This document shows positions 4,594 to 56,110 of a stretch of DNA of 64,000 nucleotides, piece after piece (position 1 is the first letter of the stretch; every line of letters starts with the position of its first letter). The notes beneath the pieces were generated by a model, which saw only the letters and a list, made by a program, of their open reading frames with translations, had not been told where the DNA came from and made no database searches. The stretch is from NCBI GenBank assembly GCA_963824115.1, contig CAWGOA010000010.1, positions 11,398 to 75,397 of the forward strand. The letters run 5' to 3'. The translations under genes and the position numbers were made by a program. This stretch comes from an uncultured Actinomycetota bacterium (GTDB lineage: Bacteria > Actinomycetota > Actinomycetes > Propionibacteriales > Nocardioidaceae).

Positions 4594-4687
4594 AGGCGCA
4601 CGAGGCGGTGTGCAGGAGACACCCCTGATCGGTCGGGGTTGACCCGGGCTTGGCGAGCGGCCGCCGCCGAGACGTCAACCGGCGCCC

Positions 4688-4731
4688 GACACGCCGACAA
4701 AAGCGGGCCGGTGGTGACGTTTCGGCGTGTC
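4688..4731. terminator. 10-bp perfect inverted repeat (GACACGCCGA / TCGGCGTGTC) at a convergent gene junction; possible bidirectional terminator
   Basis: Arms at 4688-4697 and 4722-4731 with a 24-nt loop. The right arm overlaps the stop codon of the 4730 gene. No T-tract. Shares sequence with the inverted repeat at 36859-36915. Confidence 0.3.
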
Positions 4732-5542
4732 AGCTGCCGGTGCTCTGGTAGCGCCGCATCCCCCGACTCCACACGACCAGAGCCAGCGCTGACAAGACCA
4801 CGGCCACGACCGGCGCCGCGAACCGCAGGACGTTCGGCAAGCCGCCGGGCACGTCGCGGCCCAGGACGTACAAGACGGGGTACCAGTTCACGAACGCGAT
4901 CGGGATGATGAAGGTGATCGCCTTGACGAACTCTCCGGGATAGATCGTGAGCGGGTACTGGGTGAGGTAGTTCCCGCCGTACGTGAACGCGTTGGAGACC
5001 TCGGCGCTGTCGTGGGCCCAGAACTGGAAAGCGCCTCCCAGCACGAACACCGCGGAGAAGATCACCACACCGCACACGGCGCTGACCGCGAGCATGGCGG
5101 CCTTCCCGGGGGTCCAGCCGATGTCCAGCGAGTGGAGCGACCAGACCATCACGACGACCGCCTGGCCGATCCGGCCAAGGCGGCGGAGGGAGAAGTTGTC
5201 GGTGGCGACCTGCACCAGAGCCGGGACCGGTCGGATCAGCATGACGTCGAACGACCCGTCGCGTACTCTGCGGCCCACGAGCTCGCAGTTCCCGGCCAGG
5301 AGGTCGGCGACTCCGATGCCGAGCGACGACACCCCGTACAGCAGCGCGATCTCCGCCAGGCTGAAGCCGCCGAGGGAGCTCACGTTGGAGAACATCACGA
5401 TGATCGCGGCGAAGTCGATGAACGTCGCGAAGAACTGGGAGAGGGTCAGCATCGCGAACGACGTGCGGTAGACCATCGTGGCGCGCACCGACATGCCGGC
5501 GAGGAGCAGATAGCTGCGGGCGACCGCCACGACGTCAGCCAC
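4730..5542 (-). CDS. ABC-2 family transporter permease (DUF990-type)
   Basis: Multi-pass membrane protein (TMVYRTSFAMLTLSQFFATFIDFAAIIVMF ... FIIPIAFVNWYPVLYVLG). Candidate GTG start at 5542 overlaps the upstream stop (GTGGCTGA). The ORF track extends to 5701, which would overlap the upstream gene. Confidence 0.72.
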   Translation of the reverse strand: MADVVAVARSYLLLAGMSVRATMVYRTSFAMLTLSQFFATFIDFAAIIVMFSNVSSLGGFSLAEIALLYGVSSLGIGVADLLAGNCELVGRRVRDGSFDVMLIRPVPALVQVATDNFSLRRLGRIGQAVVVMVWSLHSLDIGWTPGKAAMLAVSAVCGVVIFSAVFVLGGAFQFWAHDSAEVSNAFTYGGNYLTQYPLTIYPGEFVKAITFIIPIAFVNWYPVLYVLGRDVPGGLPNVLRFAAPVVAVVLSALALVVWSRGMRRYQSTGS

Positions 5543-10501: not shown

Positions 10502-10565
10502 GTGTCCCTCCAAACAAGTTTCACTTTCAAGCATACCCCTACCCCCACCCACAACGCCCCACCTA

Positions 10566-10627
10566 CCACCCGAAGGATCCGACTTTCAGGTAGCTCTGGC
10601 TACTTCACAGTCGGATCTTTGGGGTGG
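10566..10627. repeat. palindromic intergenic repeat element, copy A
   Basis: CCACCCGAAGGATCCGACTTTCAGGTAGCTCTGGCTACTTCACAGTCGGATCTTTGGGGTGG. It is self-complementary and homologous to 17008-17071, 44214-44284 and 55961-56030. It ends 2 nt from the glgA stop codon. Confidence 0.8.
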
Positions 10628-10628
10628 T

Positions 10629-11783
10629 TCAGACCAGGCTGGCGTACAGCCGCACGGTCTGGGCGGCGATGGCGCCCCAGTCGAACGACGTGATCGCCCG
10701 CTCGCGTCCGGCCCGACCCATCCGCCCCGCCAGGGAAGGGTCGGCCACGAGGTCGTTGACCCGGGCGGCGAACTCGCGTTCGAAGCCGGCGGGGTCGTCC
10801 GGCGTGTACTCGACCAGGAGCCCGGTCTCGTGGTCGAGCACCACCTCGGGGATGCCTCCGACCGCGCTGGCGACGACGGCTGTCTGGCAGGCCATCGCCT
10901 CGAGGTTGACGATGCCGAGCGGCTCGTACACCGAGGGGCACAAGAACGCGAGGGCATGGGAGAGCACCTGACGGACGCTCTCGCGCGGAAGCATCTGGCT
11001 GACCACGACCACCCCGTCCCGGCTGGCCTGGAGCGTCTCGATAGCAGCGTCGGTCTCCGCCTTCAGCTCGACGGTGTCGGCGGCTCCGGCGAGCAGGAGG
11101 ATCTGTACCTCGGGGTCGAACGCCAGGCCGGCGCGGAGGAGATGCGGCACCCCCTTCTGCCGGGTGATTCGGCCCACGAACGTGACATAGGGACGCGAGA
11201 GGTCCATGCCCAGCGACTCGACGATCGCCGTGTCCGCGTCGTAGTGGTAGAAGTCCGCGTCGATGCCGTTGTAGATCACGTGGATGCGGTCGTCGGGTAT
11301 CTCGGGGTACGCCGAGGCGATGTCTCGCGCCATCCCCTCGCTCACGGCGATGACGGCGCCGGCCGCGTCGTACGCGGTCCGCTCCGCCCACGACGACAGC
11401 CGGTAGCCGCCGCCGAGCTGCTCGGCCTTCCAGGGGCGGAGCGGCTCGAGAGAGTGGGCGCTCACGACGTGCGGGATGTCGTACAGCAGGGAGCTGAGGT
11501 GGCCGGCCATGTTGGCATACCAGGTATGGGAGTGCACGAGGTCACTCGAGCCGCAGGCCGCAGCCATCGCGAGGTCGGTCGACAGGACCTGCAGGGCCGG
11601 GTTCGCCTGAGGGAACCTGCCGTCCTGCTCGGGGAACGCCATCGCGCCCGGACGGTCGGCGCCCATGCAGTACACGTCGAGGTCGACAAGGTTGCGCAGA
11701 TGCCTGGCCAGGAAGTCGACGTGCACGCCCGCGCCGCCGTAGACATCGGGAGGATATTCGCGGGTGAGGAGTCCGACGCGCAT
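10629..11783 (-). CDS. glgA: GT4 alpha-glucan glucosyltransferase (actinobacterial GlgA/GlgM type)
   Basis: MRVGLLTREYPPDVYGGAGVHVDFLARHL, a C-terminal EPLGIVNLEAMACQT motif, and divergent pairing with glgC as in mycobacteria (Rv1212c/Rv1213, from memory). Confidence 0.85.
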   Translation of the reverse strand: MRVGLLTREYPPDVYGGAGVHVDFLARHLRNLVDLDVYCMGADRPGAMAFPEQDGRFPQANPALQVLSTDLAMAAACGSSDLVHSHTWYANMAGHLSSLLYDIPHVVSAHSLEPLRPWKAEQLGGGYRLSSWAERTAYDAAGAVIAVSEGMARDIASAYPEIPDDRIHVIYNGIDADFYHYDADTAIVESLGMDLSRPYVTFVGRITRQKGVPHLLRAGLAFDPEVQILLLAGAADTVELKAETDAAIETLQASRDGVVVVSQMLPRESVRQVLSHALAFLCPSVYEPLGIVNLEAMACQTAVVASAVGGIPEVVLDHETGLLVEYTPDDPAGFEREFAARVNDLVADPSLAGRMGRAGRERAITSFDWGAIAAQTVRLYASLV

Positions 11784-15354: not shown

Positions 15355-16993
15355 TGGACGCCCCTGACCTCGTCTTCACGGGAGGCAGCGTCTTCACCGC
15401 CGAGGAGCCGGCGGCTCGGCAGACGACGGTTGCGGTGACCGCGCGGTCGGATCACAGCGGTGGGCGACGATGCGCTGCGCGCGATGGCGGGACCCTCCAC
15501 GCGGGTCGTCGACCTCGGCGGCGGCCTGCTCATCCCGGGCTTCCAAGACGCCCACGTACACCCGTTGCAGGGGGGGCTCGGGCGGCTGACCTGTGATCTG
15601 ACGCCGTACTCCACGGCCGCGGAGTACCTTGCCGCGATAGCTGACTACGCCGAGAGCAGGCCAGACCTCGAGTGGATCACCGGTGCGTGCTGGACGATGG
15701 CCGCCTTCCCTGGGGGCCTACCGCGACGCGAGGCACTCGACGGCGTCGTTCCCGACCGTCCGGCGTTCTTCCCCAACCGGGACGGCCACGGGGCCTGGGT
15801 CAACACCCGAGCTCTGGAGCTCGCAGGAGTCGACGCGGGCACGCCGGACCCGGCTGACGGCCGGATCGAGCGCGACCCAGACGGCACAGCTAACGGCGTC
15901 CTTCACGAGGGGGCGATGGGACTCGTCACGAGACTGCTGCCGCGGGAGAGCCTCGAGGACCAGGTAGGTGCGCTGCTTGAGGCGCAGCGGTACCTGCACT
16001 CGCTCGGGATCACCGCTTGGCAGGACGCGATCGTCGGCGACCACTCGCACATGGCAGACGGAGGCGATGCCTACCAGGCGTGCGCCGCCGACGGCAGGCT
16101 CACAGCGAAGGTCGTCGGCGCGCTCTGGTGGCGCCGCAGCAGCGGCGGGGAGCAGATAGCCGACCTGGTCGAGCGCCGGGCGAGGCAGTCTCGGCCGAAC
16201 TTCAAGCCGACGTCGGTCAAGATCATGCAGGACGGCGTCGCAGAGAACTTCACAGCGGGAATGACGTCGCCGTACCTCGACGGTCATGGCCACCCGACCG
16301 GCAACAGCGGGCTGTCCATGGTCGACCCGGCTGCGTTGCGGGGGTACGTGACCGAGCTGGACAGGCCTGGGGTTCCAGGTCCACGTCCACGCCATCGGCG
16401 ACCGCGCCGTACGCGAGGCACTGGACGCCTTCGAGGCGGCCCGCGCGGCCAACGGGGACAGTGACAACCGGCACCACATCGCTCATATCCAGGTGATCCA
16501 TCCCGACGACGTGGGCCGGTTCCGCGAGCTCGGCGTCACTGCCAACATGCAGCCCCTGTGGGCCTCTCACGAGCCGCAGATGGACGAGCTGACGATCCCC
16601 TTCCTAGGTCCTGAGCGGGCGACGTGGCAGTACCCGTTCGGCTCGCTGGCCGCCAGCGGGGCTCGGCTCGCCGCCGGCAGCGACTGGCCGGTGAGCAGCC
16701 CCGACCCCCTGTGGGGCATCCACGTCGCCGTGAACCGGTCCCTCCCCGACGAAGGGACGTCGGCCGAGCCGTTCCTCGCCGAGCAGGCGCTGGACGTCAG
16801 GACGGCGCTGACGGCCTACACGGCCGGCTCCGCGTATGTCAACCACCTCGACGACACCGGCCGGATCGTCGTCGGTGCGGCCGCCGACCTGGCGATCCTC
16901 GACCGCGACATCACGGCGGGTCCGCGCGAGGAGATCTGCGCGGCGACCGTGCTGGCCACGTACGTCGACGGAGTCGCCGTCTACGAGCGCTAG
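15354..16993 (+). pseudogene. amidohydrolase-3 family metal-dependent hydrolase (YtcJ-like), two frame breaks (about 15443 and 16365)
   Basis: Start ATG 15354 overlaps the upstream stop (ATGA). MDAPDLVFTGGSVFTAEEP... then GRITAVGDDALR, LLIPGFQDAHVHP in a second frame. After VTELDR the sequence FQVHVHAIGDRAVREALDAFEAA, HHIAHIQVIHPDD continues in a third frame (ORF 16493-16993). Confidence 0.82.
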
Positions 16994-17007
16994 CCAGCCC
17001 CCCTTCT

Positions 17008-17071
17008 CCACCCGATAGATCGACTTCGGAGTAGCCATGACTACCTCAAAGTCGGATCTTTCGGGTAGGGG
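17008..17071. repeat. palindromic intergenic repeat element, copy B
   Basis: CCACCCGATAGATCGACTTCGGAGTAGCCATGACTACCTCAAAGTCGGATCTTTCGGGTAGGGG. It lies between the convergent amidohydrolase and DUF3037 genes. Confidence 0.8.
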
Positions 17072-17080
17072 AGATGGCGA

Positions 17081-17473
17081 TCAGCCGAGCACGAGCGCCC
17101 GCATCAGCGAGTCGAGCTCCGCCTCGGGGTCTGTGGTCAGGCCGCCGTGGACGGGGCTCGGCTGGATCACGGTGCTCCTCGGCGCCGACAGGTTGCCGAA
17201 CCTCGCGCCGAGCGAGGCGTTCGCCGCCGAACCCGCCGCTTCGGCTCCGCGGCACACGTCGTCGACGGCCGCCAGCGCGGCCCGCGCAGCGGCTAGGTCG
17301 AGCCCGGCGTCAAGGGCTCGCAAGCGCGGCGGGTCCAGATGGCTCGCGCACCGCAGGACGTCACGGGCCTGGCAGTACAGCACGACTCCGACGTTGACGA
17401 ACTCGCCGCGGTCGACCCGCGGGACACACCGCAGGACGACGTACTGGTAGCCGACCTGCTCGCCGGAGCTCAC
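17081..17473 (-). CDS. DUF3037 domain-containing protein
   Basis: GTG 17473 overlaps the upstream stop (GTGA). VSSGEQVGYQYVVLRCVPRVDRGEFVNVGVVLYCQARDVL matches my recollection of the DUF3037 N-terminal signature. Confidence 0.75.
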   Translation of the reverse strand: MSSGEQVGYQYVVLRCVPRVDRGEFVNVGVVLYCQARDVLRCASHLDPPRLRALDAGLDLAAARAALAAVDDVCRGAEAAGSAANASLGARFGNLSAPRSTVIQPSPVHGGLTTDPEAELDSLMRALVLG

Positions 17474-21542: not shown

Positions 21543-22790
<1,248 letters not shown>

Positions 22791-22812
22791 CGCATCCGCA
22801 CAGCGACATTTC

Positions 22813-22845
22813 AGCCTGGGTGGTCAGACGTCGACCACCCAGGCT
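22813..22845. terminator. 13-bp-arm hairpin between convergent sugC and the GH13 gene
   Basis: AGCCTGGGTGGTC-agacgtc-GACCACCCAGGCT, a perfect inverted repeat. The loop and right arm overlap the stop codon and last codons of the GH13 gene. No T-tract. Confidence 0.5.
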
Positions 22846-24497
22846 GCGGTGTCGGTCGGGAGAACGCCGTCCTCCGGCCCTGGCCCGGAGGCGAGGATTA
22901 ACCGCCCCTTCGGCAGATCCACGACCGCCGGACCGGTGTTCACCCAGCACTGCACGTTCCCGCGTCTGAAGGCGAGCGTGGATTCGGGGGAGTGCAGCCA
23001 GTCGGGCACGTCGAGACCGCGCAGGTGCTCACGCCGTAATCTGAGCGCCTCGCGGTACAGCGACAGCATGGACCCGGCGTCGCCTTCCTCGCGCTCGGCT
23101 GTGATCGAAGCCCACGCGGCCGGCTGCGGCAGCCACGGGGTGGCATCGGCGCCCTCGGGGCTGAAGCCGAAAGGCGGCTCGGCGCCGGACCAGGGGATGG
23201 GCACCCGGCAACCGTCCCGCCCGGGGTCTGTATGGCCCGACAGCTCCCAGGTGGGATCTTGCCGCATGCCGGGAGGGATGTCCTCAACCTCGGTGAGCCC
23301 GAGCTCCTCGCCCTGGTACAGGTAGGCAACGCCGGGCAGCGCGAGGGTGAGCAGGATCGCGGCCCGCGCCCGCTTGGTACCGAGGGCCAGGTCTGCGGGC
23401 TCCTCGGCCCAGCGTTCCCGGTCCCAGTGGCTCTCGACCCGGTGCGCCGGCTGCGACCTGGAATAGCGCGTCACGTGGCGCACAACGTCGTGGTTGGAGA
23501 GCACCCAGGTACTAGGGGCGCCGACCTCCACTGCGGTCTCGAGAGCGTCGTCGATGACTGTACGAAGCAGGTCGGCACGCCACGGCGCCCGAAGGAAGTC
23601 GAACTGGAAGGCCGTGTGGAGCTCGTCGGGCCGGAGGTACATCGCGAGCCGCTGGTTGGACCGCACCCACGCCTCGGCGGTGAAGACGCGCGGCGGATCA
23701 TAGGAGTCCGCCACCTTGCGCCATCCGCGGTAGATCTCGTGCACCTCGTCGACGTCCCACGCAGGATGGGGCTCGCTGTGTGACGCTCCGGGGCCGCGTG
23801 GCCCGGCCGGAGGCAGACCGCGCGTCTTGGCCAGGCCATGGGCGACGTCGATCCTGAAGCCGTCGACGTCACGGTCGAACCAGAACCTCAAGATGTCCTC
23901 GAACTCGCCGCGCACCTCGGGGTTGGTCCAGTCGAGGTCGGGTTGACCCGGTGCGAACAGGTGCAGGTACCAGTCGCCGGGCGCGCCGTCCGCGTTCGTC
24001 GTCCGCGTCCAGGCCGGTCCGCCGAAGTTGCTCTGCCAGTCGTTCGGCGGCTCGTCGCCGGACGACCCGAGCCCGGGCCGGAAGATGTAGCGGGCCCGGG
24101 CCGACGGCTCGCCACGGAGGGCGCCCTGGAACCAGCGATGTGCCGCCGACGTGTGGTTGGGAACCACGTCCAAGAGCACTTTCAGGCCGGCGCGGTGAGC
24201 CTCGCGGATGAGGTCCTCGGCCTGTGCGAGGGTCCCGAACCGCGGGTCGATGTCGCGGTAGTCGGCCACGTCGTAGCCGCCGTCCTCCATCGGGGACGGG
24301 TACCACGGCGTGATCCAGAGCGCGTCGACGCCGAGGGTCGCGACGTACGGCATCCTCGCCCGCAGGCCCTCGAGGTCGCCGATCCCGTCCCCGCCGCCGT
24401 CGGCGAAGCTGCGGATGTACACCTGGTAGATCACCGCGGTCTGCCACCAGTGGGTGCCAGAGTCGGTCGAGGGCTCGTGGGGCGCCGACTCGGGCAT
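22824..24497 (-). CDS. GH13 alpha-glucosidase / oligo-1,6-glucosidase-type hydrolase
   Basis: Likely start ATG 24497 (GGAAGGA RBS). WWQTAVIYQVYIRSFADGGGDGIGDLEGL, DVVPNHTS, GFRIDVAHGL, EAWV, NHD. Confidence 0.88.
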   Translation of the reverse strand: MPESAPHEPSTDSGTHWWQTAVIYQVYIRSFADGGGDGIGDLEGLRARMPYVATLGVDALWITPWYPSPMEDGGYDVADYRDIDPRFGTLAQAEDLIREAHRAGLKVLLDVVPNHTSAAHRWFQGALRGEPSARARYIFRPGLGSSGDEPPNDWQSNFGGPAWTRTTNADGAPGDWYLHLFAPGQPDLDWTNPEVRGEFEDILRFWFDRDVDGFRIDVAHGLAKTRGLPPAGPRGPGASHSEPHPAWDVDEVHEIYRGWRKVADSYDPPRVFTAEAWVRSNQRLAMYLRPDELHTAFQFDFLRAPWRADLLRTVIDDALETAVEVGAPSTWVLSNHDVVRHVTRYSRSQPAHRVESHWDRERWAEEPADLALGTKRARAAILLTLALPGVAYLYQGEELGLTEVEDIPPGMRQDPTWELSGHTDPGRDGCRVPIPWSGAEPPFGFSPEGADATPWLPQPAAWASITAEREEGDAGSMLSLYREALRLRREHLRGLDVPDWLHSPESTLAFRRGNVQCWVNTGPAVVDLPKGRLILASGPGPEDGVLPTDTAAWVVDV

Positions 24498-24523
24498 GCG
24501 GAGTCCTTCCAAGCGGGCACGTA

Positions 24524-24544
24524 AACGGTTGCGCCGCAAGCGTT
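24524..24544. promoter_or_regulatory. candidate LacI-family operator (21-bp imperfect palindrome)
   Basis: AACGGTTGCG-C-CGCAAGCGTT, with 9 of 10 arm positions complementary. It lies 27 nt upstream of the GH13 start, in the divergent region shared with the LacI gene. Confidence 0.3.
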
Positions 24545-24690
24545 GCGAGGGTCACACTCGATGTCAAGTCGGGTCTCGGCTCGGGCACCCACTGCCGGAC
24601 GGTCGCACGCCGGCCGTCGAAGAGGCGACACGGAGGGATATGCGCGAACCCGTTCACCGCCGGCCGGGGGAGTCCGGTTCCGCCGTCCAG

Positions 24691-25750: not shown

Positions 25751-27889
25751 GTGCTGGTGACCTCGCCACCGTCCGTCGGCGCTGCCAGCAGCCCGCTCGC
25801 GCCCGCCCGCGCCGAGGTGGCAGCGGCCGTGATCGAGGCGATCGCGGGTCCGGGCGCGATGCTGAGGCCGGACCAGGAGGCCGCGGTGGCGGCCCTGTGC
25901 GAGCCGGCGGCGCGGGTACTTCTCGTCCAGGCGACGGGGTGGGGGAAGTCCGCTGTGTACTGGGCCGCGACCGCGATCCGGCGGGCGGAGGGGAACGGGC
26001 CGACCCTGGTGGTGTCGCCCCTGCTGTCGCTCATGCGTGACCAGGTGGCTGCCTCGGAGCGCGCCGGGCTGCGGGCAGCGACCGTCAACTCCTCCAACAT
26101 CGACGCCTGGTCGCAGATCGAGCAGGACCTCGTCGCCGACCGGCTCGACGTCTTGTTGGTCTCCCCGGAGCGCCTCGCGAACCCTGGGTTCGGCCGGCGG
26201 GTGCTCGACGTGTCCGCTGGGCGCCTCGGCCTGCTCGTGATCGACGAGGCGCACTCGGTCTCGGACTGGGGGCACGACTTCCGGCCCGACTACCGCCGGG
26301 TGTCCGACGTGTTGCGCAGGCTCAACCCCGACACTCCGGTGCTGGCGACGACGGCGACGGCCAACCAGCGGGTGACCGACGACGTCGCCGCCCAGCTGGG
26401 GGAGGCGACACTTGTCCTGCGCGGGCCGCTCGCCCGGGGCAGCCTGGAGCTCGCCGTGCTGGCGCCGATGAGCCCGCTCGAGCGGTTCGCCTGGGTGGCG
26501 GAGCAGATCGCGACGCTGCCCGGCAGTGGCATCGTGTACACGCTCACGGTCTCCGATGCCGAGCGCTTGGCGGCTGCAGTCGACGCCGTCAACGGCGTCA
26601 ACGTCAAAGTCGCCGCCTACACCGGCCAGCTCGAGTCGCAGGAGCGCGAGCGGCTCGAGGAGAGCCTGCGCGCCAACGAGGTGAAGGCGCTGGTCGCCAC
26701 GTCCGCACTGGGCATGGGCTACGACAAGCCCGATCTCGGCTTCGTCGTCCACGTCGGCGCCCCGCCCTCACCGGTCTCGTACTACCAGCAGGTGGGCAGG
26801 GCGGGCCGGGCGATCGACCATGCCCTCGTGGTCTTGCTGCCGTCCGCCGCAGACCAGGGGGTCTGGGACTACTTCGCGACGGCGACGATCCCGGACCCCG
26901 AACAGGTCGGTCGGCTGCTGGCATGCCTGGAGACCGAGAGCCCTGACGGGATCTGGACCGTGCAGGCAATCGAGGCGGAGACCGGGCTGCGCAGGACCCG
27001 CGTCGAGCTGATGCTCAAGCAGCTCGCGGTCGACGGCGCCGTCGACCGGGTCGACCGCGGCTGGCGCCGTACGCCGCAGGAGTGGCGCTTCGACACCGAG
27101 CACTACGAGTCGATCGTGGCGACCCGCAAGCGGGAGGCGGCGATCATGCACACCTACATCGAGGGCCGAGCGTGCCTGATGCAGCTGCTCCAGGAGTCCC
27201 TGGACGACCCCAGCGCCAGCCGCTGCGGGAGGTGCTCGGCTTGCCGCGACGAGCTTCCCGAAGGACTGCCCTCGCGTCCGCAGCCGTCGAGCGTCCAGTC
27301 GGTGGCGGCCGTACTGAGAGGTGAGAGGCACCTGCTCGTACCCCGGAAGATGTGGCCAGGGGGGGATTTCGGCCGGCGGGGACGGATCCCACCCGACGAG
27401 CTGGCCGAAGAGGGCAGGACTCTCATCTTCGCCGACGCACCGGAGTGGGCCGACGACATCGCCTCGTTCGGCCCCCGCTCGGGGCCGTCCGATCAGCTGC
27501 TGGCGGCCAGCGTCGCCCTGATGTCCACCTGGCGAGCCTCCTGGCCGGCGCGCCCGGAGATCGTGCTGGCGCTTTCCGCGGCGGGACTGCGACCGCTGGT
27601 CGAGGGCGTTGCGGACCACCTCGCCACGGTGGGCCGGTGGCAGCGCTGCGACGTCGTCGTCGACGCCCGCCCCGACGGCAACGGCCGGCTGAGCTCCTCG
27701 CAGGAGGCGGTGTTCTGGCAGGACGCACTTCACCTCGACCCCGTCGGCACCGAGCTCGTGGACGGGCGGGTTGTCCTCCTCGTCGTCGACGCCACGGCGT
27801 CGCTTTGGCCGATCACGGTGGCCGCCGCGCTCCTGCGCAAGGCCGGTGCCACCTGCGTACTGCCGCTCCTGCTGCATCAGCGCCCGTAG
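25751..27889 (+). CDS. RecQ-like ATP-dependent DNA helicase (RqlH-type, with a non-RecQ C-terminal domain)
   Basis: ATGWGKSAVY (Walker A), VIDEAHSVSDWGHDFRPDY (DEAH), ATSALGMGYDKPDLGFVVH, YYQQVGRAGR, Cys cluster C...SRCGRCSAC. The C-terminal roughly 230 aa ends GRVVLLVVDATASLWPITVAAALLRKAGATCVLPLLL. Confidence 0.85.
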   Translation: MLVTSPPSVGAASSPLAPARAEVAAAVIEAIAGPGAMLRPDQEAAVAALCEPAARVLLVQATGWGKSAVYWAATAIRRAEGNGPTLVVSPLLSLMRDQVAASERAGLRAATVNSSNIDAWSQIEQDLVADRLDVLLVSPERLANPGFGRRVLDVSAGRLGLLVIDEAHSVSDWGHDFRPDYRRVSDVLRRLNPDTPVLATTATANQRVTDDVAAQLGEATLVLRGPLARGSLELAVLAPMSPLERFAWVAEQIATLPGSGIVYTLTVSDAERLAAAVDAVNGVNVKVAAYTGQLESQERERLEESLRANEVKALVATSALGMGYDKPDLGFVVHVGAPPSPVSYYQQVGRAGRAIDHALVVLLPSAADQGVWDYFATATIPDPEQVGRLLACLETESPDGIWTVQAIEAETGLRRTRVELMLKQLAVDGAVDRVDRGWRRTPQEWRFDTEHYESIVATRKREAAIMHTYIEGRACLMQLLQESLDDPSASRCGRCSACRDELPEGLPSRPQPSSVQSVAAVLRGERHLLVPRKMWPGGDFGRRGRIPPDELAEEGRTLIFADAPEWADDIASFGPRSGPSDQLLAASVALMSTWRASWPARPEIVLALSAAGLRPLVEGVADHLATVGRWQRCDVVVDARPDGNGRLSSSQEAVFWQDALHLDPVGTELVDGRVVLLVVDATASLWPITVAAALLRKAGATCVLPLLLHQRP

Positions 27890-27900: not shown

Positions 27901-27933
27901 GATCCGACTCACGGGCGCCCGGTGAGCCGGATC
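27901..27933. terminator. GC-rich hairpin after the helicase gene; shares the GATCCGACT arm with the palindromic repeat family
   Basis: GATCCGACTCACGGGCGCCCGGTGAGCCGGATC. It starts 12 nt after the stop at 27889. Confidence 0.4.
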
Positions 27934-27961: not shown

Positions 27962-29005
27962 GTGTGCAGGCGACAGTTCGGCTTCGCCTTGGTGCTTTCG
28001 GTGGCGCTGACGGTTGTCGCCGTCATCGTGGCGCTCACGCAGAATCTTCCGTACCGCGACCCCGACGGGGTCGTCGGGCCGACGTTCGTCCTGCTTCCCA
28101 TCATCGTGACGCTGGCCTTCCTCACCGATGTGGCGCCCCGGGCGGTCCACAGGGCGCACCTTGCGGGGTCCCTGCGCCAGTTCCCTCAGAGGTTCCGCGA
28201 GGTCACCATCGAGCGCTGGACGTGGGAGCACGTCCGCTTCGCCCTGCTCGGGCTCGGAAGCTGGTACCTGACCTACGTCTCGTTCCGCAATCTCAAGAGC
28301 TACGTCCCGTTCGTCAACCCGCACCTCTGGGACTCGTCCCTCAACAGGTTGGACGAGAAGATCCTCTTCGGACACGACCCTGCGGTCGTCCTGCACCACC
28401 TCCTGGGTACCGGCTGGGCCGCCCATGTGTGCTCCGACGTCTACATCGCCTGGATCGCGCTCGTGCCGGTGACCTTGGCGGCAGCGCTCGTGTGGTCGCG
28501 CAACGAGGCGGCAGGCTCGTGGCTCGTCACTGCGGTGGCGGTCGACTGGGCTCTCGGGGTCGCGACGTACTACATCCTGCCGACGCTGGGACCGATTTAT
28601 GCCAAGCCCAAGCTGTTTCGTCAACTTCCTCAGACGTACGTGACCCGCATCCAGGCGACGATGCTCGAGCAGCGCCACGCGGTGCTCGCCCATCCCTTCG
28701 GCACCGAAGCCGTCCAGACCATCGCGGCCTTCGCCTCGTTGCACGTCGGCATCACGGTCACGGTCTGCGTCATCGCCCACCTGCTGCGCCTCAACATCTG
28801 GTGCCGGATCGCGTTGTGGGTGTTCTTGTTCCTGACCGTCGTGTCCACGATCTACCTCGGGTGGCACTACCTGGTGGACGCGTTCGGTGGTGTCGTGCTC
28901 GGCGTCGCGGGAGCCTGGATCGCCGCCGTCGCCACCGGCAACCACGTCCGGCTGCGCCCCGTGCTCCGCGGAGCCGCCCGCGAGCTCGAGCCGACTTCGC
29001 TGTAG
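27962..29005 (+). CDS. PAP2 superfamily membrane protein (PAP2_3 / inositolphosphotransferase-like)
   Basis: Multi-pass membrane protein with C-terminal PAP2 motifs FASLHVG and GWHYLVDAFGG. GTG start is uncertain. Confidence 0.75.
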   Translation: MCRRQFGFALVLSVALTVVAVIVALTQNLPYRDPDGVVGPTFVLLPIIVTLAFLTDVAPRAVHRAHLAGSLRQFPQRFREVTIERWTWEHVRFALLGLGSWYLTYVSFRNLKSYVPFVNPHLWDSSLNRLDEKILFGHDPAVVLHHLLGTGWAAHVCSDVYIAWIALVPVTLAAALVWSRNEAAGSWLVTAVAVDWALGVATYYILPTLGPIYAKPKLFRQLPQTYVTRIQATMLEQRHAVLAHPFGTEAVQTIAAFASLHVGITVTVCVIAHLLRLNIWCRIALWVFLFLTVVSTIYLGWHYLVDAFGGVVLGVAGAWIAAVATGNHVRLRPVLRGAARELEPTSL

Positions 29006-29022
29006 GTGGATAGCCTTCTCGG

Positions 29023-29289
29023 ATGGAGCGACGGCGAGTCATCGTGCGCGGCGAAGTCCAAGGAGTGTTCTTCCGGGACAGCTGTCGGCAAGCGGCGATC
29101 TCCGCTCACGTGAGCGGCTGGGTCGCCAACCTGCCCGACGGAAGGGTCGAAGCGGTCTTCGAGGGCGACAGCGACGCCGTGGACGCGCTGTGCGACTGGT
29201 GTCGTGAGGGACCGCGGGACGCGCGCGTGGACGAGGTGACAGTCACGTCGGAGCCGTCTCGCGGCGAGTCCGGTTTCCGGGTGCGATGA
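29023..29289 (+). CDS. acyP: acylphosphatase
   Basis: VIVRGEVQGVFFRDSCRQAA...GWVANLPDGRVEAVFEG is the canonical acylphosphatase signature. Confidence 0.9.
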   Translation: MERRRVIVRGEVQGVFFRDSCRQAAISAHVSGWVANLPDGRVEAVFEGDSDAVDALCDWCREGPRDARVDEVTVTSEPSRGESGFRVR

Positions 29290-29528
29290 CCTCGATCCTG
29301 CGGGCGTGGCAGGCTCGTCCTATGGGATTCAAGGTGCACAACGCGTCCGGGTACGAGAGCTACTCAGACGACGCCACATACGGGTTCAACGAGGCCGGGC
29401 TGCTGGTCATCAAGCTCGGCGGCAGTGGCGGGACGCTTACCTACTCGCCGCACGCCTGGACGGTCGTCGAGGAGCCCGACCGCGACGGGGGGTATCACCT
29501 CCAACGGGCCACGTACTCGCGGGAGTAG
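29286..29528 (+). CDS. small hypothetical protein
   Basis: ATG overlaps the acyP stop (ATGA), suggesting coupling. No recognisable domain. Alternative start ATG 29322 (MGFKVHN). Confidence 0.45.
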   Translation: MTSILRAWQARPMGFKVHNASGYESYSDDATYGFNEAGLLVIKLGGSGGTLTYSPHAWTVVEEPDRDGGYHLQRATYSRE

Positions 29529-29536
29529 CCGCAGTT

Positions 29537-29641
29537 CTAGGTGACCCCGGGCATCACCAGCTGCGCAAGTCCGAGCTGGTTGCCCTCACTGCCGTGGAAC
29601 CAGGCGGCCCGCTCGCCGACCGCGCCCGTGGACGGGTAGCC
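29537..29641 (-). pseudogene. 3'-terminal remnant of a VOC/glyoxalase-family gene
   Basis: Minus-strand translation GYPSTGAVGERAAWFHGSEGNQLGLAQLVMPGVT* resembles the C-terminal strand of VOC proteins (xxFxDPxGNxxxLxQ). A stop sits immediately upstream in frame, and the rest of the gene is missing (replaced by the LamG gene). Confidence 0.4.
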
Positions 29642-29720
29642 TCACGCTGAGAAGCGGCTCGCTGTGGTCAGCGGCCTGGCGCGGCGCTAGACATGAAGCC
29701 GGTCGCCGCTGTAGCGCGCG

Positions 29721-30404
29721 TCACGAGACGAATGCGTCGTAGATCTCACCCAGGAACCAGTCGGCACTGGGATCGTTCACGTCAGCCTTAGCTCCGATGC
29801 TGAGCTTGGCCGTGTTGGAGATTGACCCGATCCCGGCGGCATTGGTCTTGCTGCGCGTCGGATAGGCATCGACTTGGAGCCGCAGGGTGTTGCCCACCTT
29901 GCTGCATGTGATGGTGTGCTGCTGGCCGTCGTTGAGGCCCGCCTTGGGTCCCCAGATCACTGAGGTGGCGTGCTTGGCAGAGTCTTTCACGATGCAGAAT
30001 GCCTTCGCCACACCGTTACGCGGCACGACTTCGATCTTGAACTCCCCACCGACGGAGCTGGCCAAGCCCTTGCGAAGCAGGTCATAGTCGGTACCTGGAG
30101 CCGGCGTCGTCGTCGTGAGCGTGAGCCCGAAGGAGAAGTCGCTCGGACCAGGGTTGAGCGAGTCTGAGCTCGGGACGGTGACACGGGAGTCCGCGCCGTC
30201 GAAGACGTAGCCTTGCCCGTCACCGATGACGTTCTCGCTGTTCCCGTTGTTGTTGTTGCCCGAGTCGTCGGTCGCGGTGGTCGTGCCGATCTCGTCGAAA
30301 CCCCAGTGGCCCCGCACTGTGGCGGCTTGCGCGCCCGGTGCGGAGAGGGCGAAGACGACGCCGAACAACCCCGCGGCGATGATGGTTATGCGTGAAGCTC
30401 TCAA
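29721..30404 (-). CDS. secreted LamG/concanavalin-A-like lectin-fold protein
   Basis: TTG start with AGGAAG RBS. Signal peptide MRASRITIIAAGLFGVVFALSAPGAQA. GHWGFDE...DSGNNNNG...FDGADSRVTVP is typical of Laminin_G_3 domains. G+C is visibly lower than the surroundings. Confidence 0.75.
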   Translation of the reverse strand: MRASRITIIAAGLFGVVFALSAPGAQAATVRGHWGFDEIGTTTATDDSGNNNNGNSENVIGDGQGYVFDGADSRVTVPSSDSLNPGPSDFSFGLTLTTTTPAPGTDYDLLRKGLASSVGGEFKIEVVPRNGVAKAFCIVKDSAKHATSVIWGPKAGLNDGQQHTITCSKVGNTLRLQVDAYPTRSKTNAAGIGSISNTAKLSIGAKADVNDPSADWFLGEIYDAFVS

Positions 30405-30706
30405 GAGCGGCTTCCTACGGTTGAACGCCCGGCCCGGTGCCGAGAGTCAGGAGTGGCAAGGGCGAGAGCAGCTGCTGCCTCGATGCGACTCCGGCCGTGG
30501 CGCGCCTGATAGAGCAAATGGCCTAGCAGGCTTTCCGTTTATAGCCCATTTATAAGGGTTTAGCAATCTCGGCTAGAACTCCGACGTGGGATGTCTCGTA
30601 ATGCGGTGACACCACGTTTCCAGACGTTCACACAGCGCAGGAATTGTCAGGCTATTCGGTCCGGTGAGGCAGGTTGTCGCGTCGGGGACAGGTTTAGGGT
30701 GACGCC

Positions 30707-30982
30707 ATGGTGGTCCTCGACCTCGGCGGCGTGATCGTCGCCGTCATCATCGGAGCGCTCCCGGCATTCATCATCTGGAGGGGGTCGCAGCAGGCTCGCG
30801 TGGACAACGACGAGCTTCGTAGCGACGTGGTCAGGATGCGGGCCGAGAACTCCCGATTGCGTAAAGGACTGGATGAGATCACTCGGCGCACCATCGAGGA
30901 GGCGTCCGTGGACCCAGCGGTGAGGGACTTCTGCATCGTCATCTTGGACGAGGCCGACAAGCTCCGCAGAGATCTACCCTGA
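30707..30982 (+). CDS. small membrane-anchored coiled-coil protein, hypothetical
   Basis: N-terminal TM segment (LGGVIVAVIIGALPAFIIW) followed by a heptad-like charged helix (DELRSDVVRMRAENSRLRKGLDEI). No homolog recognised. Confidence 0.45.
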   Translation: MVVLDLGGVIVAVIIGALPAFIIWRGSQQARVDNDELRSDVVRMRAENSRLRKGLDEITRRTIEEASVDPAVRDFCIVILDEADKLRRDLP

Positions 30983-31035
30983 GGGGCCACGCCTCGTTGT
31001 GTGGACTGAAAGGGAGATGCCGTTACCCCCATGCA

Positions 31036-31446
31036 TCAGCCGTGCCGGGTGTTCCAGGCCGTGGCGGCGCCGAACGAGACACCTGCGATCGCGCCAAGCG
31101 CCGCCCACGGGTTGCCGTCCCTGCCCTGTGCAACCTCCCAGATGAACATCGCGATGATGACCAGGATCAAGACCTCGCCCGTGAACGCGAGCGACCTCAA
31201 CGAGTTGGCACGGCCTCGTTCGTCCGGCACATCACCGCCCAGCAGTCCGATCGTCTCGCTTCGGCGTCCCAAGGTGAGCAGGACTGCTGAGTACACCGCC
31301 ATGATGACGAGCGAGGTGACTGCGCTCGTCCAGTCGCCGCGAACGGCATAGATCACGAAGAAGAGCAGCCCGAAGGCGATCCCAAGGATCGGAGTGACGA
31401 ACCGCTCAATGGTCTTGCGGTTGCTGATTCGCACAAGAGTCGACAT
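31036..31446 (-). CDS. four-TM membrane protein, partner of the small XRE regulator
   Basis: Four hydrophobic segments. It overlaps the 3' end of the HTH gene by 41 nt (operonic). Confidence 0.6.
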   Translation of the reverse strand: MSTLVRISNRKTIERFVTPILGIAFGLLFFVIYAVRGDWTSAVTSLVIMAVYSAVLLTLGRRSETIGLLGGDVPDERGRANSLRSLAFTGEVLILVIIAMFIWEVAQGRDGNPWAALGAIAGVSFGAATAWNTRHG

Positions 31447-31627
31447 GGAAGATCTCCTCGATGATGGTGTCGAACTGTCTGGCGATGCGCATGGCCAGCG
31501 GGAGCGTCGGGTTGTAGCGGCCGGTCTCGATCGCGTTCACCGTCTGCCGCGAGACGCCAAGCGCAGCAGCGAGCTGGCCTTGGGACAGGCCGGCCTGCTC
31601 TCTCAGCGTGCGGACGTCATTGCGCAT
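31406..31627 (-). CDS. XRE/Cro-C1 family helix-turn-helix transcriptional regulator (about 70 aa)
   Basis: MRNDVRTLREQAGLSQGQLAAALGVSRQTVNAIETGRYNPTLPLAMRIARQFDTIIEEIF is the canonical HTH_3 pattern. Confidence 0.85.
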   Translation of the reverse strand: MRNDVRTLREQAGLSQGQLAAALGVSRQTVNAIETGRYNPTLPLAMRIARQFDTIIEEIFHVDSCANQQPQDH

Positions 31628-31630
31628 CGC

Positions 31631-31676
31631 TGTAAAGTTTGCTTGTCAGGTGATGCTCTGTCAAGCAACCTTTACA
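31631..31676. promoter_or_regulatory. 19-bp inverted repeat (17/19 match, 8-bp spacer) directly upstream of the XRE gene; candidate autoregulatory operator/promoter
   Basis: TGTAAAGTTTGCTTGTCAG-gtgatgct-CTGTCAAGCAACCTTTACA. It starts 4 nt from the ATG. On the coding strand it contains TTGACA. Confidence 0.45.
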
Positions 31677-31934
31677 ACTGGTCGAAAGGTCCGACGGCGT
31701 CGGCGACGTGGCTGGGCGCCCGAGACGCAACGTGGATCGATGACCGCCGGACCCACGTGCAATTTCCGCGTAGGCCAGCAGACGAAATCAGTAGGCGGGC
31801 AGTCGTCGGAGATAGGAGGCACCCGCCTACTGGCCGTGTGCACCCACGATTTCCGTGGCGCTCGCCACGGCTACAGCCACTCTCAGGACCGTCGCCCTCG
31901 ATCGGTTGGCAATCCCGAGCCATGACGTCCTAGG

Positions 31935-32012
31935 TCATCTGCGGCCTCGGAGAAACCCGAGAACCACCACGACCACGATGACGACAATGACGATAATAAT
32001 CAGCAATCTCAT
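31935..32012 (-). CDS. candidate 25-aa ultra-hydrophobic mini-protein (MRLLIIIVIVVIVVVVVLGFLRGRR)
   Basis: ATG...TGA, below the ORF-track cutoff, in the most AT-rich stretch of the window. A TTGACA lies 65 nt upstream on the same strand. No clear Shine-Dalgarno sequence. Confidence 0.3.
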   Translation of the reverse strand: MRLLIIIVIVVIVVVVVLGFLRGRR

Positions 32013-32078
32013 AGATCGAGAGCATAGCTGAACCCACGCGGCTGGCGGCTGATAAGAACGTGACCGTGGCCCGAGCTG

Positions 32079-32416
32079 TCAACGCCGCCTACTACCTGTT
32101 GCGCCAGTTAGTGCAGTGAACCCCCGGTCGAGGCTTTCGACGTCGACCAGGCGATAGCCCGCCCGCAGTTCTTTCGACTCCGGGTACGGGCCGTCGATGA
32201 CCTTCGGCGGGTTGACGCCGTCGGATACCACGATCTTTGCGACGTCCGGCCGGCCAGGCCCTGTGCGTCGACGAGCTCGCCGCGGTCCAGCAGCTCGACG
32301 TTGAGCGCGTGCTGGAAGTCGATGTGGGCTCTGACATCTTCGGGCGCCCACTCGGTCATGGGCGTGCACCCCTCGAGCTCGACCTCTCCGTAGGCTTGCA
32401 GGAGCATGTATCGCAT
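32079..32416 (-). pseudogene. YciI (YCII/DGPF) family protein, frameshifted near 32251 and apparently truncated at the 3' end
   Basis: MRYMLLQAYGEVELEGCTPMTEWAPEDVRAHIDFQHALNVELLDRGELVDAQGLAG, then the homologous PDVAKIVVSDGVNPPKVIDGPYPESKELRAGYRLVDVESLD continues in another frame (ORF 32079-32369). The expected C-terminal helix/strand is replaced by lower-G+C sequence. Confidence 0.6.
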
Positions 32417-32501
32417 GGCTTCATCCTCTCGTGGGAACGGGCCGTTGTGGCCGCGCTTCACCCCAAGGTCGAAGCCCGTGCGTCGTTCTCGACACCCCTC
32501 G

Positions 32502-33857: not shown

Positions 33858-33899
33858 CTAGCCAACCTATCCCTACGACTCGGCCGGTTGAAACCCAAT

Positions 33900-35406: not shown

Positions 35407-35461
35407 CCACCCACCTTCGCGATCGGGGCTCCCACGCGCAAGACGCAGGCATACTGACCGG

Positions 35462-36855: not shown

Positions 36856-36858
36856 CCC

Positions 36859-36915
36859 CGACACGTCACCACCGGCCCACGACACGCCGTACGACGACCA
36901 CCGATTGACGTGTCG
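36859..36915. repeat. 10-bp perfect inverted repeat (CGACACGTCA / TGACGTGTCG) at a convergent junction, related to 4688-4731
   Basis: Shares a 16-mer ACGTCACCACCGGCCC (reverse complement) and GACACGCCG with the 4688-4731 element. Confidence 0.3.
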
Positions 36916-36959
36916 ACGAGCGGCGACCTCCCGCCGGCTCGGACAGTCACTCTTCCAGG

Positions 36960-37784
36960 TCAGATGGGCAGGCTCTTGAACTGCTCGACCTGTGCTCGGA
37001 TCGCGCGCTCGGTCGGCAACCGCTCCATGCTCGAGGCTCCGAAGAAGCCGACGATCCCCGTGGTGCGCTCGAGGACATGGCGTGCATCGTCGGGCTCGGC
37101 GATCGGCCCGCCGTGACAGAGCACGATGACGTCCGGGTTCACCGCCTTCGCCGCGTCGTGCATGCGCCTGCACCGCCTCCACCGCCTCGTCGAGCGTCAT
37201 CGCGGTGGCCGCGCCGATCGTGCCCTTGGTGGTCAGGCCCATGTGCGGGACCAGCACGTCTGCCCCGGCCCGGGTCATGGCCACCGCCTGGCTCGGCGTC
37301 GAAGACGTACGGCGCAGTCAGCAGATCGAGGTCGTGGGCCGCGGCGATCATGTCGACCTCGAGACCGAAGCCCATGCCGGTCTCCTCCAGGTTCTGCCGG
37401 AACATGCCGTCGATCAGGCCGACAGTGGGGAAGTTCTGCACGCCGGTGAAGCCCGGCTCGCTGCAGCTCGCGCAGGAACGGCGTCATCAGCCGGAACGGA
37501 TCGGTGCCGCACACGCCGGCCAGGACGGGCGTGCGCTGCACGATGGGGAGCACCTCGCGGGCCATCTCCATCACGATGGCGTTGGCGTCGCCGTACGGCA
37601 TCATGCCGGCGAGCGAGCCGCGGCCGGCCATGCGGTAGCGGCCGGAGTTGTAGATGATGAGCAGGTCGATGCCGCCGGCCTCCGCGGACTTGGCGGACAG
37701 GCCGGTGCCGGCTCCGCCGCCGATGACCGGCCGTCGCGACTCGATCTGTCGACGCAGCCCAGCCAGTGCAGTGTCGCGATCCAC
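36960..37784 (-). pseudogene. phosphoenolpyruvate-hydrolase-like TIM-barrel protein (PF09370-type), three frame breaks
   Basis: Pieces in three frames read consecutively: [50 protein letters not shown]...FLRELQRAG | [35 protein letters not shown]...PYVFD | [23 protein letters not shown] | [21 protein letters not shown]...GFFGASSMERLP. Breaks at about 37452, 37285 and 37165. Confidence 0.75.
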
Positions 37785-37786
37785 GC

Positions 37787-41841: not shown

Positions 41842-41953
41842 CGCCCGCGAAAACCCTCACGATGCCCGCGATGGCCTGGGGCTTCATCGGACGCCGGGCG
41901 TCAACCGCCCGGAGTTCTAGCCGCCGATCGGCTTCGAGACATAACCTGTCGGT

Positions 41954-42900: not shown

Positions 42901-44247
42901 ATGGAGCGCATGACGAAGGCGTACGCACCCGACGCGGAGGTCACCGAGATCTGCCGCGACCTGATCAGGATCGACACATCGAACTACGGCGATGACTCGG
43001 GGCCGGGGGAGCGGGCGGCCGCCGAGCACGTGGCCGGGCTGCTGAGCGAGGTAGGCATCGAGTCGGAGCTGTTCGAGCCCGCCAGCCGGCGTACCTCTGT
43101 CGTCGCGCACTGGGGCGATCCCTCCGCCGCCGACCGGCTGCTGATCCACGGCCATCTCGACGTCGTCCCCGCGGCCAAGGCGGACTGGAAGATCGACCCC
43201 TTCTCCGCGGAGGTGCACGACGACTACGTCTGGGGCCGCGGAGCCGTGGACATGAAGGACTTCGACGCGGCGATCCTCTCCGTCGTCCGCGCCAGGACTC
43301 GGGCCGGCGCGCTGCCGAGACGAGCGGTCACGCTGGTCTTCACGGCCGACGAGGAGGCGGGCAGCATCCACGGCGCGCACGCGCTGGTCGACCAGAGGCC
43401 GGACCTGCTCGAGGGATGTACCGAGGGGATCGGTGAGGTCGGCGGGTTCTCCGCGACCGTCGGCGGCAGGCGGCTGTACCTCGTCGAGACCGCCGAGAAG
43501 GGTATGGCCTGGCTGCGGCTGAGGGCCCACGGCACGGCCGGGCACGGCTCGATGCGCAACACCGACAACGCCGTGACCGCCATCGCCGAGGCGGTGGCCG
43601 CGATCGGGCGTCACCAGTGGCCGATCAGGATCACTCCGACGATGGGTGCGCTGCTCGAACAAGTCGCTGCCCTGACCGGCCAGGAGGACGTCCACGCCGA
43701 CGTCGACGCGCTCATCGAGCACTTCGGCGCCGCAGCCCGGATGCTCGCCGCCGTGGTACGCAACACCGCCAACCCGACGATGCTGAGCTCGGGCTACAAG
43801 CACAACGTCGTACCCGGCGAGGCGACCGCATGCATCGACGGGCGGTTCCTCCCGGGCTACGAGGACGAGTTCTTCACTACCCTCCGGAGCCTGCTGCCCG
43901 ACAACGTCAGCTACGAGCTGCTGGTCCACGACAAAGCCCTCGAGACACCGTTCGACGGCCCCCTGGTCGACGCCATGTGCGCCTCCCTGCTCGAGGAGGA
44001 CCCCGAGGCGACGGTGCTGCCGTTCTTGATGTCGGGAGGTACCGACGCGAAGGCTTGGAGCCGGCTCGGCATCAGGTGCTTCGGGTTCTCCCCACTGCGG
44101 CTGCCTGCCGGACCTCGACTTCACTGCCTTTTCCACGGGGTTGACGAGCGGGTACCATCGACGGCCTCGAGTTCAGCGCCCGCGTGCTGGACTCGTTCCT
44201 CGACCGGGCCTGACCCCAGACAGAATCCGACTCGCGAGTGGCCATAG
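42901..44247 (+). CDS. M20/M25/M40 family metallopeptidase (DapE/ArgE-like); the 3' end carries three small indels
   Basis: LLIHGHLDVVP, GRGAVDMK, FTADEEAG, GTAGHGS. The expected C-terminus LRLPxDLDFTALFHGVDERVPIDGLEFSARVLDSFLDRA* is recoverable only by frame switches at about 44110, 44130 and 44155. The corrected stop is TGA 44211-44213. Confidence 0.85.
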   Translation: MERMTKAYAPDAEVTEICRDLIRIDTSNYGDDSGPGERAAAEHVAGLLSEVGIESELFEPASRRTSVVAHWGDPSAADRLLIHGHLDVVPAAKADWKIDPFSAEVHDDYVWGRGAVDMKDFDAAILSVVRARTRAGALPRRAVTLVFTADEEAGSIHGAHALVDQRPDLLEGCTEGIGEVGGFSATVGGRRLYLVETAEKGMAWLRLRAHGTAGHGSMRNTDNAVTAIAEAVAAIGRHQWPIRITPTMGALLEQVAALTGQEDVHADVDALIEHFGAAARMLAAVVRNTANPTMLSSGYKHNVVPGEATACIDGRFLPGYEDEFFTTLRSLLPDNVSYELLVHDKALETPFDGPLVDAMCASLLEEDPEATVLPFLMSGGTDAKAWSRLGIRCFGFSPLRLPAGPRLHCLFHGVDERVPSTASSSAPACWTRSSTGPDPRQNPTREWP

Positions 44248-44284
44248 CCACGTCGAGAGTCGGTCGTTCGGGTGGTGGCGGTGG
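44214..44284. repeat. palindromic intergenic repeat element, copy E
   Basis: CCCCAGACAGAATCCGACTCGCGAGTGGCCATAGCCACGTCGAGAGTCGGTCGTTCGGGTGGTGGCGGTGG. It is wedged between the corrected stops of the M20 and DUF5703 genes. Confidence 0.75.
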
Positions 44285-55928: not shown

Positions 55929-55960
55929 GTGGCCAGCCTACGGGTCCCGTCGCGGCCGCT

Positions 55961-56030
55961 CACCACCGCGAATATCCGACTCTGAAGTGGTCAGAGCGAC
56001 GGAAGGGTCGGATATTTCTGGTGGTGGTGG
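55961..56030. repeat. palindromic intergenic repeat element, copy C
   Basis: CACCACCGCGAATATCCGACTCTGAAGTGGTCAGAGCGACGGAAGGGTCGGATATTTCTGGTGGTGGTGG. It lies in the divergent PAC2/metH intergenic region. Confidence 0.75.
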
Positions 56031-56110
56031 CGCGCATGAGATCGCCTTCACCTGTCGGACGGCGCGGCTAGGCTTGTCCAACCCGCTGCCCGGACTACGC
56101 GAAGGAGCCC

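Follow-up and report, generated by a model that had tools for sequence, protein, structure and literature searches.

Four intergenic sites in the window, the whole 64-kb stretch of DNA analysed here from an uncultured soil actinobacterium of the family Nocardioidaceae, are best read as copies of one lineage-restricted, dispersed palindromic element of the REP-REPIN/TRIT kind (TRIT, Tuberculosis Rho-independent terminator motif), which is as yet unnamed. The copies are strongly concentrated right after stop codons, above all in the gaps between convergent genes, and their occupancy differs among related genomes. At two gene-end sites, the sequence of the arms, not their pairing alone, is constrained. 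The element is real and probably functional, and its placement, symmetry and constraint point to a putative bidirectional role at transcript ends.

The four copies and their fold

Two covariance models describe the element. R1, built from the four window copies as the first-pass annotation had proposed, recovers these copies with 73-85 bits; R2, built from nine sequences including copies of other genomes, scores the window copies at 55-80 bits (E 7e-15 to 1.5e-22). With the filters off, the models find exactly four full copies in the 64-kb window and no other, and the four sequences quoted in the first-pass annotation lie exactly where it had placed them:

Copy A: palindrome proper 10565-10628 within 10563..10634, plus strand; R1 78.7 bits, R2 80.1 bits; RNA MFE -43.4 kcal/mol, z -9.2
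Copy B: 17001..17077, plus strand; R1 81.6 bits, R2 69.3 bits; z -4.5/-5.3
Copy E: 44211..44284, plus strand; R1 73.2 bits, R2 55.2 bits; z -2.9/-3.1
Copy C: 55955..56033, plus strand; R1 84.7 bits, R2 73.4 bits; MFE -50.6 kcal/mol, z -7.9

The four copies are alignable over ~70 columns with a mean column identity of 72-74%, copy E being the most diverged, and the conserved blocks named at first reading are those seen in the alignment. The consensus reads roughly (CCA)CCCGAAAGATCCGACT, followed by ~25 variable nucleotides containing a small apical stem-loop and then by AGTCGGATCTTTCGGG(TGG). The core arms are CCCGAAAGATCCGAC / GTCGGATCTTTCGGG, the ends of the element are CCACCC/GGGTGG, and 15-nt arms of identical sequence recur across unrelated loci and other genomes. 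In the case of copy B, a C is absent in GAT-CGAC, possibly as an assembly indel. All four window copies score best on one and the same strand, an observation with n = 4 and with a model built from that strand, and the orientation of the element is independent of the direction of the flanking genes. The description of the family as dispersed, intergenic and palindromic, without an ORF, tRNA or transposase, is borne out. A density of one copy per 16 kb in the window would extrapolate to a few hundred copies per genome.

Each full copy forms an imperfect hairpin of 24-26 bp, which consists of a lower stem of 7 + 12 pairs, a small internal loop, an apical stem of 5-7 bp and a tetraloop, in agreement with the imperfect stem of ~25 bp first proposed. 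With RNA parameters, all four copies fold far better than shuffled sequences (z down to -9.2), and DNA parameters give similar results. In the nine-sequence alignment, 81% of the cells form standard pairs, compared with 31-47% in controls with one arm shifted by 1-3 columns, and nine pairs carry changes on both sides. The arms of copy C contain a compensated change, ATATCC/GGATAT in place of AGATCC/GGATCT, by which G-C is replaced by U-A and the stem is kept. For copy A, the strand antisense to the flanking genes gives the more stable fold (-43.4 vs -35.9 kcal/mol).

Placement at gene ends and occupancy in related genomes

The window has a GC content of 69% and represents a conserved actinobacterial chromosomal region, encoding LigB, a GlgA-like GT4, GlgC, GGT, a PPIase, an amidohydrolase, DUF3037, an M20 peptidase and DUF5703, together with UppP, CorA, DUF3090, MshC, PALP, PAC2 and MetH. 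Where labelled, the best protein matches come from Nocardioidaceae/Propionibacteriales MAGs. The amidohydrolase, M20 peptidase, DUF5703, trehalase-like GH15 (GH15/TREH) and PALP enzyme genes are frameshifted in the window, and the reading frames at 15460-16993, 42901-44247, 44072-44581, 44585-45992 and 53847-55985 are frameshifted or unstopped compared with intact orthologues. These frameshifts are most likely long-read indel errors, and they result in false ORF ends inside elements E and C. As written, the M20 reading frame runs into the loop of E, and that of DUF5703 reads through E; the true stops around E are taken from the orthologues in the relative L038. Indel errors in the window could also affect single positions of the elements.

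The genes flanking the copies are functionally unrelated. Copy A lies 1 nt from the stop of the GT4/GlgA-like gene (10629-10631, minus strand) and 64 nt upstream of the LigB start (10501, minus strand), which is on the same strand as GT4. Copy B is located in a convergent gap, with the amidohydrolase stop (16991-16993) 14 nt away on one side and that of DUF3037 (17081-17083) 9 nt away on the other. Copy E occupies the entire convergent gap between M20 and DUF5703: it follows the stop of the M20 peptidase (TGA 44211-44213) at 0 nt, and 1 nt separates it from that of DUF5703 (44286-44288, minus strand). Copy C is situated in a divergent spacer, 32 nt from the PAC2 start (55928, minus) and 80 nt from the MetH start (56111, plus), in accordance with its earlier assignment to a position between divergent genes. 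The first-pass annotation had put A, B and E at 0-10 nt from stop codons; the stops it named are the true ones once the frameshifts are allowed for, at corrected distances of 1 nt (A), 14/9 nt (B) and 0/1 nt (E).

Beyond the window, a strict hairpin pattern scanned over 185,579 species genomes yields four loci: two from a Microlunatus MAG (L001 and L002, shorter variants of 19-31 bits), one from a Nocardioidaceae MAG (L003, with one copy of 61 bits with R2) and one chance match. In the JGI metagenomes, the same strict pattern finds 28 loci, about the chance expectation; the model confirms only L020 (44 bits) and the L012/L023/L025 locus (45 bits), the other metagenome matches being due to chance. 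Related copies are absent from the plasmids searched by BLAST and from the viral contigs covered by two scans.

A stop codon is found 0-18 nt away at seven of eight independent loci, and five of these seven are situated in convergent stop-to-stop gaps, namely B, E, L020 (18 and 0 nt off the two stops), the L025 group (17 and 5 nt) and L002-5023 (6 and 0 nt). A and L002-1010 stand directly after a stop, and only C is divergent. The L002 hairpin at 5023-5092 (Microlunatus MAG JASGEZ01) has a 16-bp stem, from which a 3x3 internal loop separates a 6-bp apical stem with a tetraloop; it shares the family architecture, has a different arm sequence and occupies its convergent stop-to-stop gap. This architecture suggests a wider superfamily with lineage-specific arm sequences.

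Occupancy can be followed site by site in related genomes. The relative L036, whose GlgC shares 93.5% protein identity with that of the window and whose fourfold-degenerate sites differ at 28-45% (0.28-0.45), carries copies at exactly sites A and B (66 and 60 bits, the B copy at L036 8013-8094). Site A is empty in L005 and L007: the upstream motif TTCAAGCATAC is kept, the sequence then leads nearly straight into the stop codon, and the empty spacers do not fold (z > 0). Across 58 kb of L005, L006 and L007, no intact copy occurs, the fourfold divergence of L005 being ~0.5. At site E, L038 has an unrelated 75-nt spacer, and its 21 kb contain no copy. In L039, L040 and L043-47, with PAC2 94-95% identical, the MetH-PAC2 spacer is 54 nt long and without the element. 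L041 and L042 (96% identical, fourfold 0.38) retain a decayed orthologous remnant of C, with 18 and <7 bits, respectively, and the L041 remnant no longer folds (z 0.0). In more distant relatives, no intact copy is found in about 119 kb, and the A, C and E sites are empty. Empty sites, which the first-pass annotation had advised looking for in close relatives, exist in these more distant ones at A (L005, L007) and at C (L039, L040, L043-47). Between filled and empty site A, no direct repeat is visible, with flanks too diverged for certainty.

Several minor features accompany these sites. In L005, a degenerate look-alike (15534-15604, 14 bits) stands in the part that corresponds to B, flanked by a 122-aa gene on one side and a methyltransferase gene on the other, both of which are absent from the window and L036; the family may predate the loss of those two genes. 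Between L041 (985-1131) and L042 (1-229), PAC2 is 99.3% identical, and the upstream spacer and the 5' end of MetH differ by ~20%, a contrast that points to recombination with a breakpoint at the start of PAC2. This breakpoint accounts for the difference between the two C remnants, and hypervariability through element-specific mutation is rejected.

Near copy A, a motif AGTTnnnnnTTCAAGCATAC (10518-10537), ~20-40 nt upstream of the start of the LigB-family dioxygenase, is kept in the window, L036, L005 and L007 (alignment A3), with the remaining spacer not conserved, and may represent a promoter or operator. Directly downstream of copy A along transcription, four G-runs (GGGG, GGG, GGGGG, GGGG) are located at 10537-10562 on the minus strand, a potential G-quadruplex; this tract belongs to the extra sequence missing from the empty A sites. 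Elsewhere in the window, a stretch at ~28000-42700 is GC-poorer (0.63-0.67 vs about 0.69-0.71), contains a C1-like peptidase and several ORFs without a Pfam match, and ends at tRNA-Leu(gag) (42736-42821, minus). At the corresponding place beside M20, L038 carries a phage-type integrase, and the stretch probably represents a genomic island or a hot spot of integration.

Constraint on the arms and the competing explanations

Between the window and L036, the core arms of sites A and B differ at 5 of 60 positions (~8%). Against a neutral divergence of 28-45%, this corresponds to a binomial p of 2e-4 to 6e-10, in a test that comprises two orthologous pairs and takes their copies to be related by descent, not through repeated insertion or short-patch gene conversion. 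The central 50 positions (the 25-nt apical part at two sites) differ at 40%, which is neutral, and the apex drifts, its changes not being clearly compensated; the conserved part of the element is formed by the arms, each of about 19 nt. Meanwhile, the promoter-side copy C has decayed in L041 and L042 at a divergence comparable to that between the window and L036. Arms kept at gene ends, together with a decayed C, fit a host-level function tied to the gene-end position. This pattern of constraint is at odds with a purely selfish element, of whose fixed copies uniform decay would be expected.

The best explanation, held with slightly more confidence than doubt, is that a REP/TRIT-like palindrome is kept as a transcript 3'-end hairpin without a U-tract and is read by a sequence-specific factor. 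Once transcribed, the element would fold into a long hairpin lacking a U-tract, which would define or protect transcript 3' ends in both directions through polymerase pausing or termination, and/or would block 3'-to-5' exonucleases after Rho-dependent termination. The invariant GATCCGAC/GTCGGATC stem would be recognised by a sequence-specific host factor, either on dsRNA or on a DNA hairpin. The copies would spread via a hairpin-dependent or transposase-dependent process, being retained where they are useful or harmless and decaying at other places, of which the divergent promoter site C of relatives is an example. No U-tract or T-run follows any copy on either strand, and consensus scans for terminators and for promoters are both empty at the four sites. 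The better fold of copy A on the antisense strand counts against a transcript-end hairpin.

Part of the evidence would also suit a purely selfish, non-autonomous MITE/REPIN-like hairpin, served by a transposase elsewhere and without a host function, whose gene-end placement reflects tolerated insertions; this alternative is conceivable but doubtful. The variable occupancy among relatives, the decay of copy C and the conserved arms with a variable centre, a classic TIR-plus-filler pattern, all agree with it, the lack of an intact copy in ~119 kb of relatives fits a lineage-specific burst, and the shared orientation of the four copies could reflect single-strand transposition (n = 4). However, fixed same-site copies should decay neutrally, and the core arms stand at ~8% vs 28-45%; target-site duplications are not visible at filled vs empty site A, where the flanks are diverged, and the viral contigs and plasmids searched hold no copies. 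Pfam detects no transposase, RAYT or integrase in the window, and the retrieved loci contain no RAYT, IS or transposase; the search for a RAYT gene suggested at first reading, confined to the window and these loci, found none. An improbable alternative places recognition at the DNA level, with a cruciform or the paired half-sites GATCCGACT...AGTCGGATC bound by a nucleoid, topoisomerase or gyrase-type factor where supercoils build up between convergent genes, as proposed for E. coli BIMEs. The conservation of sequence beyond pairing in both arms, the enrichment at convergent junctions, the orientation independent of flanking gene direction and the strongly significant folding with DNA parameters would all be expected of such a site. 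Nevertheless, these observations fit RNA recognition equally, the compensation seen between the arms of C and the pairing left in the centre argue for a folded single strand rather than a duplex site, and we know of no candidate binding protein.

Independent small-RNA genes, or cis-regulatory leaders of the neighbouring genes, are very unlikely. The hairpins are stable and conserved, and C is placed 5' to both MetH and PAC2, but promoter-like sites are lacking at the four copies, no Rfam family matches, the neighbouring genes have unrelated functions, and upstream of MetH and PAC2 in relatives, C is either missing or decayed. Chance likeness among ordinary GC-rich terminator stems has a negligible probability. 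Taken alone, neither the 8-mer ATCCGACT (6 found vs 2.5 expected) nor the loose CCGACT...GTCGG pattern is significantly enriched, as would be expected of chance; against this stand the full-length model E-values of 1e-14 to 1e-22 and the identical 15-nt arms at unrelated loci and in other genomes. A generic terminator-stem similarity, the outcome named in the first-pass annotation as speaking against a family, is ruled out by the model E-values and the L036 copies.

Relation to described palindromes and to other hairpins of the window

In Rfam searches of the window at gathering and permissive thresholds, tRNA-Leu alone reaches its gathering threshold, the element regions giving far-sub-threshold miRNA-hairpin noise, and TRIT is not among their matches. 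The literature yields no named palindromic family for Nocardioides or Actinobacteria that matches the element. The earlier statement that no named family fits therefore stands, with neither an Rfam family nor a published family found for the lineage.

Judged by analogy, the mycobacterial TRIT motif, not BIMEs, is the closest described analogue. In M. tuberculosis, TRIT comprises 147 palindromic, bidirectional copies placed tightly at stop codons, for which Gardner et al. (2011, PMC3152330) proposed a dsRNA-binding factor. Both are dispersed, sequence-conserved palindromes of a high-GC actinobacterium, confined to a single lineage, with bidirectional symmetry, a narrow placement at stop codons, no canonical U-tract and a conserved stem sequence that suggests a binding factor. 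In contrast, reports of TRIT come from Mycobacterium alone, and most TRITs begin within the coding sequence, at about -8 (PMC3152330), whereas the present copies start 0-18 nt after the stop and occur in Nocardioidaceae, with related variants in Microlunatus; the two are compared here by description. Predicted TRITs of M. tuberculosis overlap only 2-4% of the mapped termination sites (bioRxiv 10.1101/2022.06.01.494293), and for this reason the TRIT analogy would be no guarantee of a terminator function. Term-seq in Streptomyces has revealed structured 3' ends of transcripts that lack U-tracts (PMC8269248). The element resembles such I-shaped terminators or HS-U-lack hairpins in its strong GC-containing stem-loop directly downstream of genes, its missing U-tract and its bidirectional use at convergent genes. 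However, those hairpins have evolved individually and share no sequence, whereas the element is one sequence family at unrelated loci.

REP and REPIN elements, known from enterobacteria and pseudomonads, are likewise extragenic palindromic repeats found at many loci, at gene 3' ends and in convergent gaps, with lineage-specific sequences, and the ~70-nt hairpin resembles a REPIN. Proposed roles of REP and REPIN elements include mRNA stabilisation, termination and protein binding. A short imperfect palindrome at multiple extragenic sites, one criterion of REP, is present here in four intergenic copies in 64 kb. Further criteria are a copy number above 100 per genome, with which the extrapolated window density would agree, and a single-copy RAYT (Y1 transposase) gene flanked by the repeats. 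Compared with REP and REPIN, the element has no terminal GTAG/CGTC tag, its arms are not themselves small palindromes, and no RAYT is seen. The survey of GTAG/CGTC REPs (PMC3733652) mentions neither Actinobacteria nor the actinobacterial genera looked for. Within the window copies, GTRG is confined to the apical stem, and the L036 orthologues have lost it (GTCGC, GCTGC).

Bacterial MITEs are exemplified by Correia and ERIC. Terminal inverted repeats, one criterion of MITEs, exist in the form of the ~19-nt arms, and further likenesses are the short, non-coding nature of the element, its inverted-repeat ends with a variable centre and the presence/absence differences between relatives. At the same time, ~70 nt is shorter than most MITEs, orthologous copies are host-constrained, no target-site duplication is visible at site A, where the flanks are diverged, and the retrieved loci hold no parent IS, the ends of which would have to match CCACCCGAAAGATCCGAC. 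The designation as REP/BIME- or MITE-like thus survives for dispersal and variable occupancy; membership in these classes is not supported, the GTAG/CGTC head being absent and no RAYT, target-site duplication or parent IS being found in the window and the retrieved loci. A canonical intrinsic (L-shaped) terminator is rejected owing to the lack of a T-run after any copy on either strand. An integron attC site is also rejected: the copies have no GTT/AAC cores (RYYYAAC / GTTRRRY), and the flanking genes are syntenic core genes rather than cassettes. Furthermore, dif, parS and operator sites are rejected on sequence and location.

The mode of transcript ending in high-GC actinobacteria is unclear, canonical terminators being rare and the role of TRIT disputed. 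The element adds a second family in another order, with the same placement and with measurable purifying selection on the stem sequence, and such a second constrained family provides a comparative handle on which factor reads the stems and whether they terminate, pause or stabilise. It is not a new kind of system; it is an unnamed, lineage-specific dispersed palindrome at gene ends, alongside E. coli REP and Mycobacterium TRIT. A broader idea drawn from the TRIT analogy, speculative and rather unlikely as a whole, is that high-GC actinobacteria, lacking terminators with a U-tract, repeatedly evolve sequence-specific, factor-read hairpin modules that serve as bidirectional transcript-end signals and spread like mobile elements. 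The element family would then be a second independent instance beside TRIT, with the invariant GATCCGAC stem read by a dsRNA- or hairpin-binding termination or processing factor or by a domesticated transposase. For annotation, the model (consensus CCCGAAAGATCCGACT...AGTCGGATCTTTCGGG) is usable to mark sites in Nocardioidaceae MAGs and can flag false ORF extensions ending within elements, and the element is usable as a strain-level presence/absence marker.

Two weaker hairpins of the window are not counted as members of the family:

27901..27933, strand not assigned: short hairpin just past the stop of gene 25751-27889, sharing GATCCGACTC / CCGGATC with the family
22804..22854, strand not assigned: hairpin (inverted repeat I5) at the convergent junction of genes 21543-22790 (plus) and 22824-24551 (minus)

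The first of these had been put forward as a fifth, short member. It has the 10-mer GATCCGACTC in common with the family, but with R2 it reaches only 9.2-9.5 bits (E about 1), its fold is weak (z -1.7/-2.6), and membership is not demonstrable; it is at most possibly a truncated relative. The second (match 22809-22853) obtains 17.4 bits with R2 (E 0.004) in an alignment with large deletions. It is rejected as a member, the model match being weak and CCACCC standing beside the loop rather than at the base. Hairpins at 4678-4741 and 22804-22854 of the window are unrelated in sequence and are both situated at convergent gene junctions, so that junction hairpins are not unique to the family.
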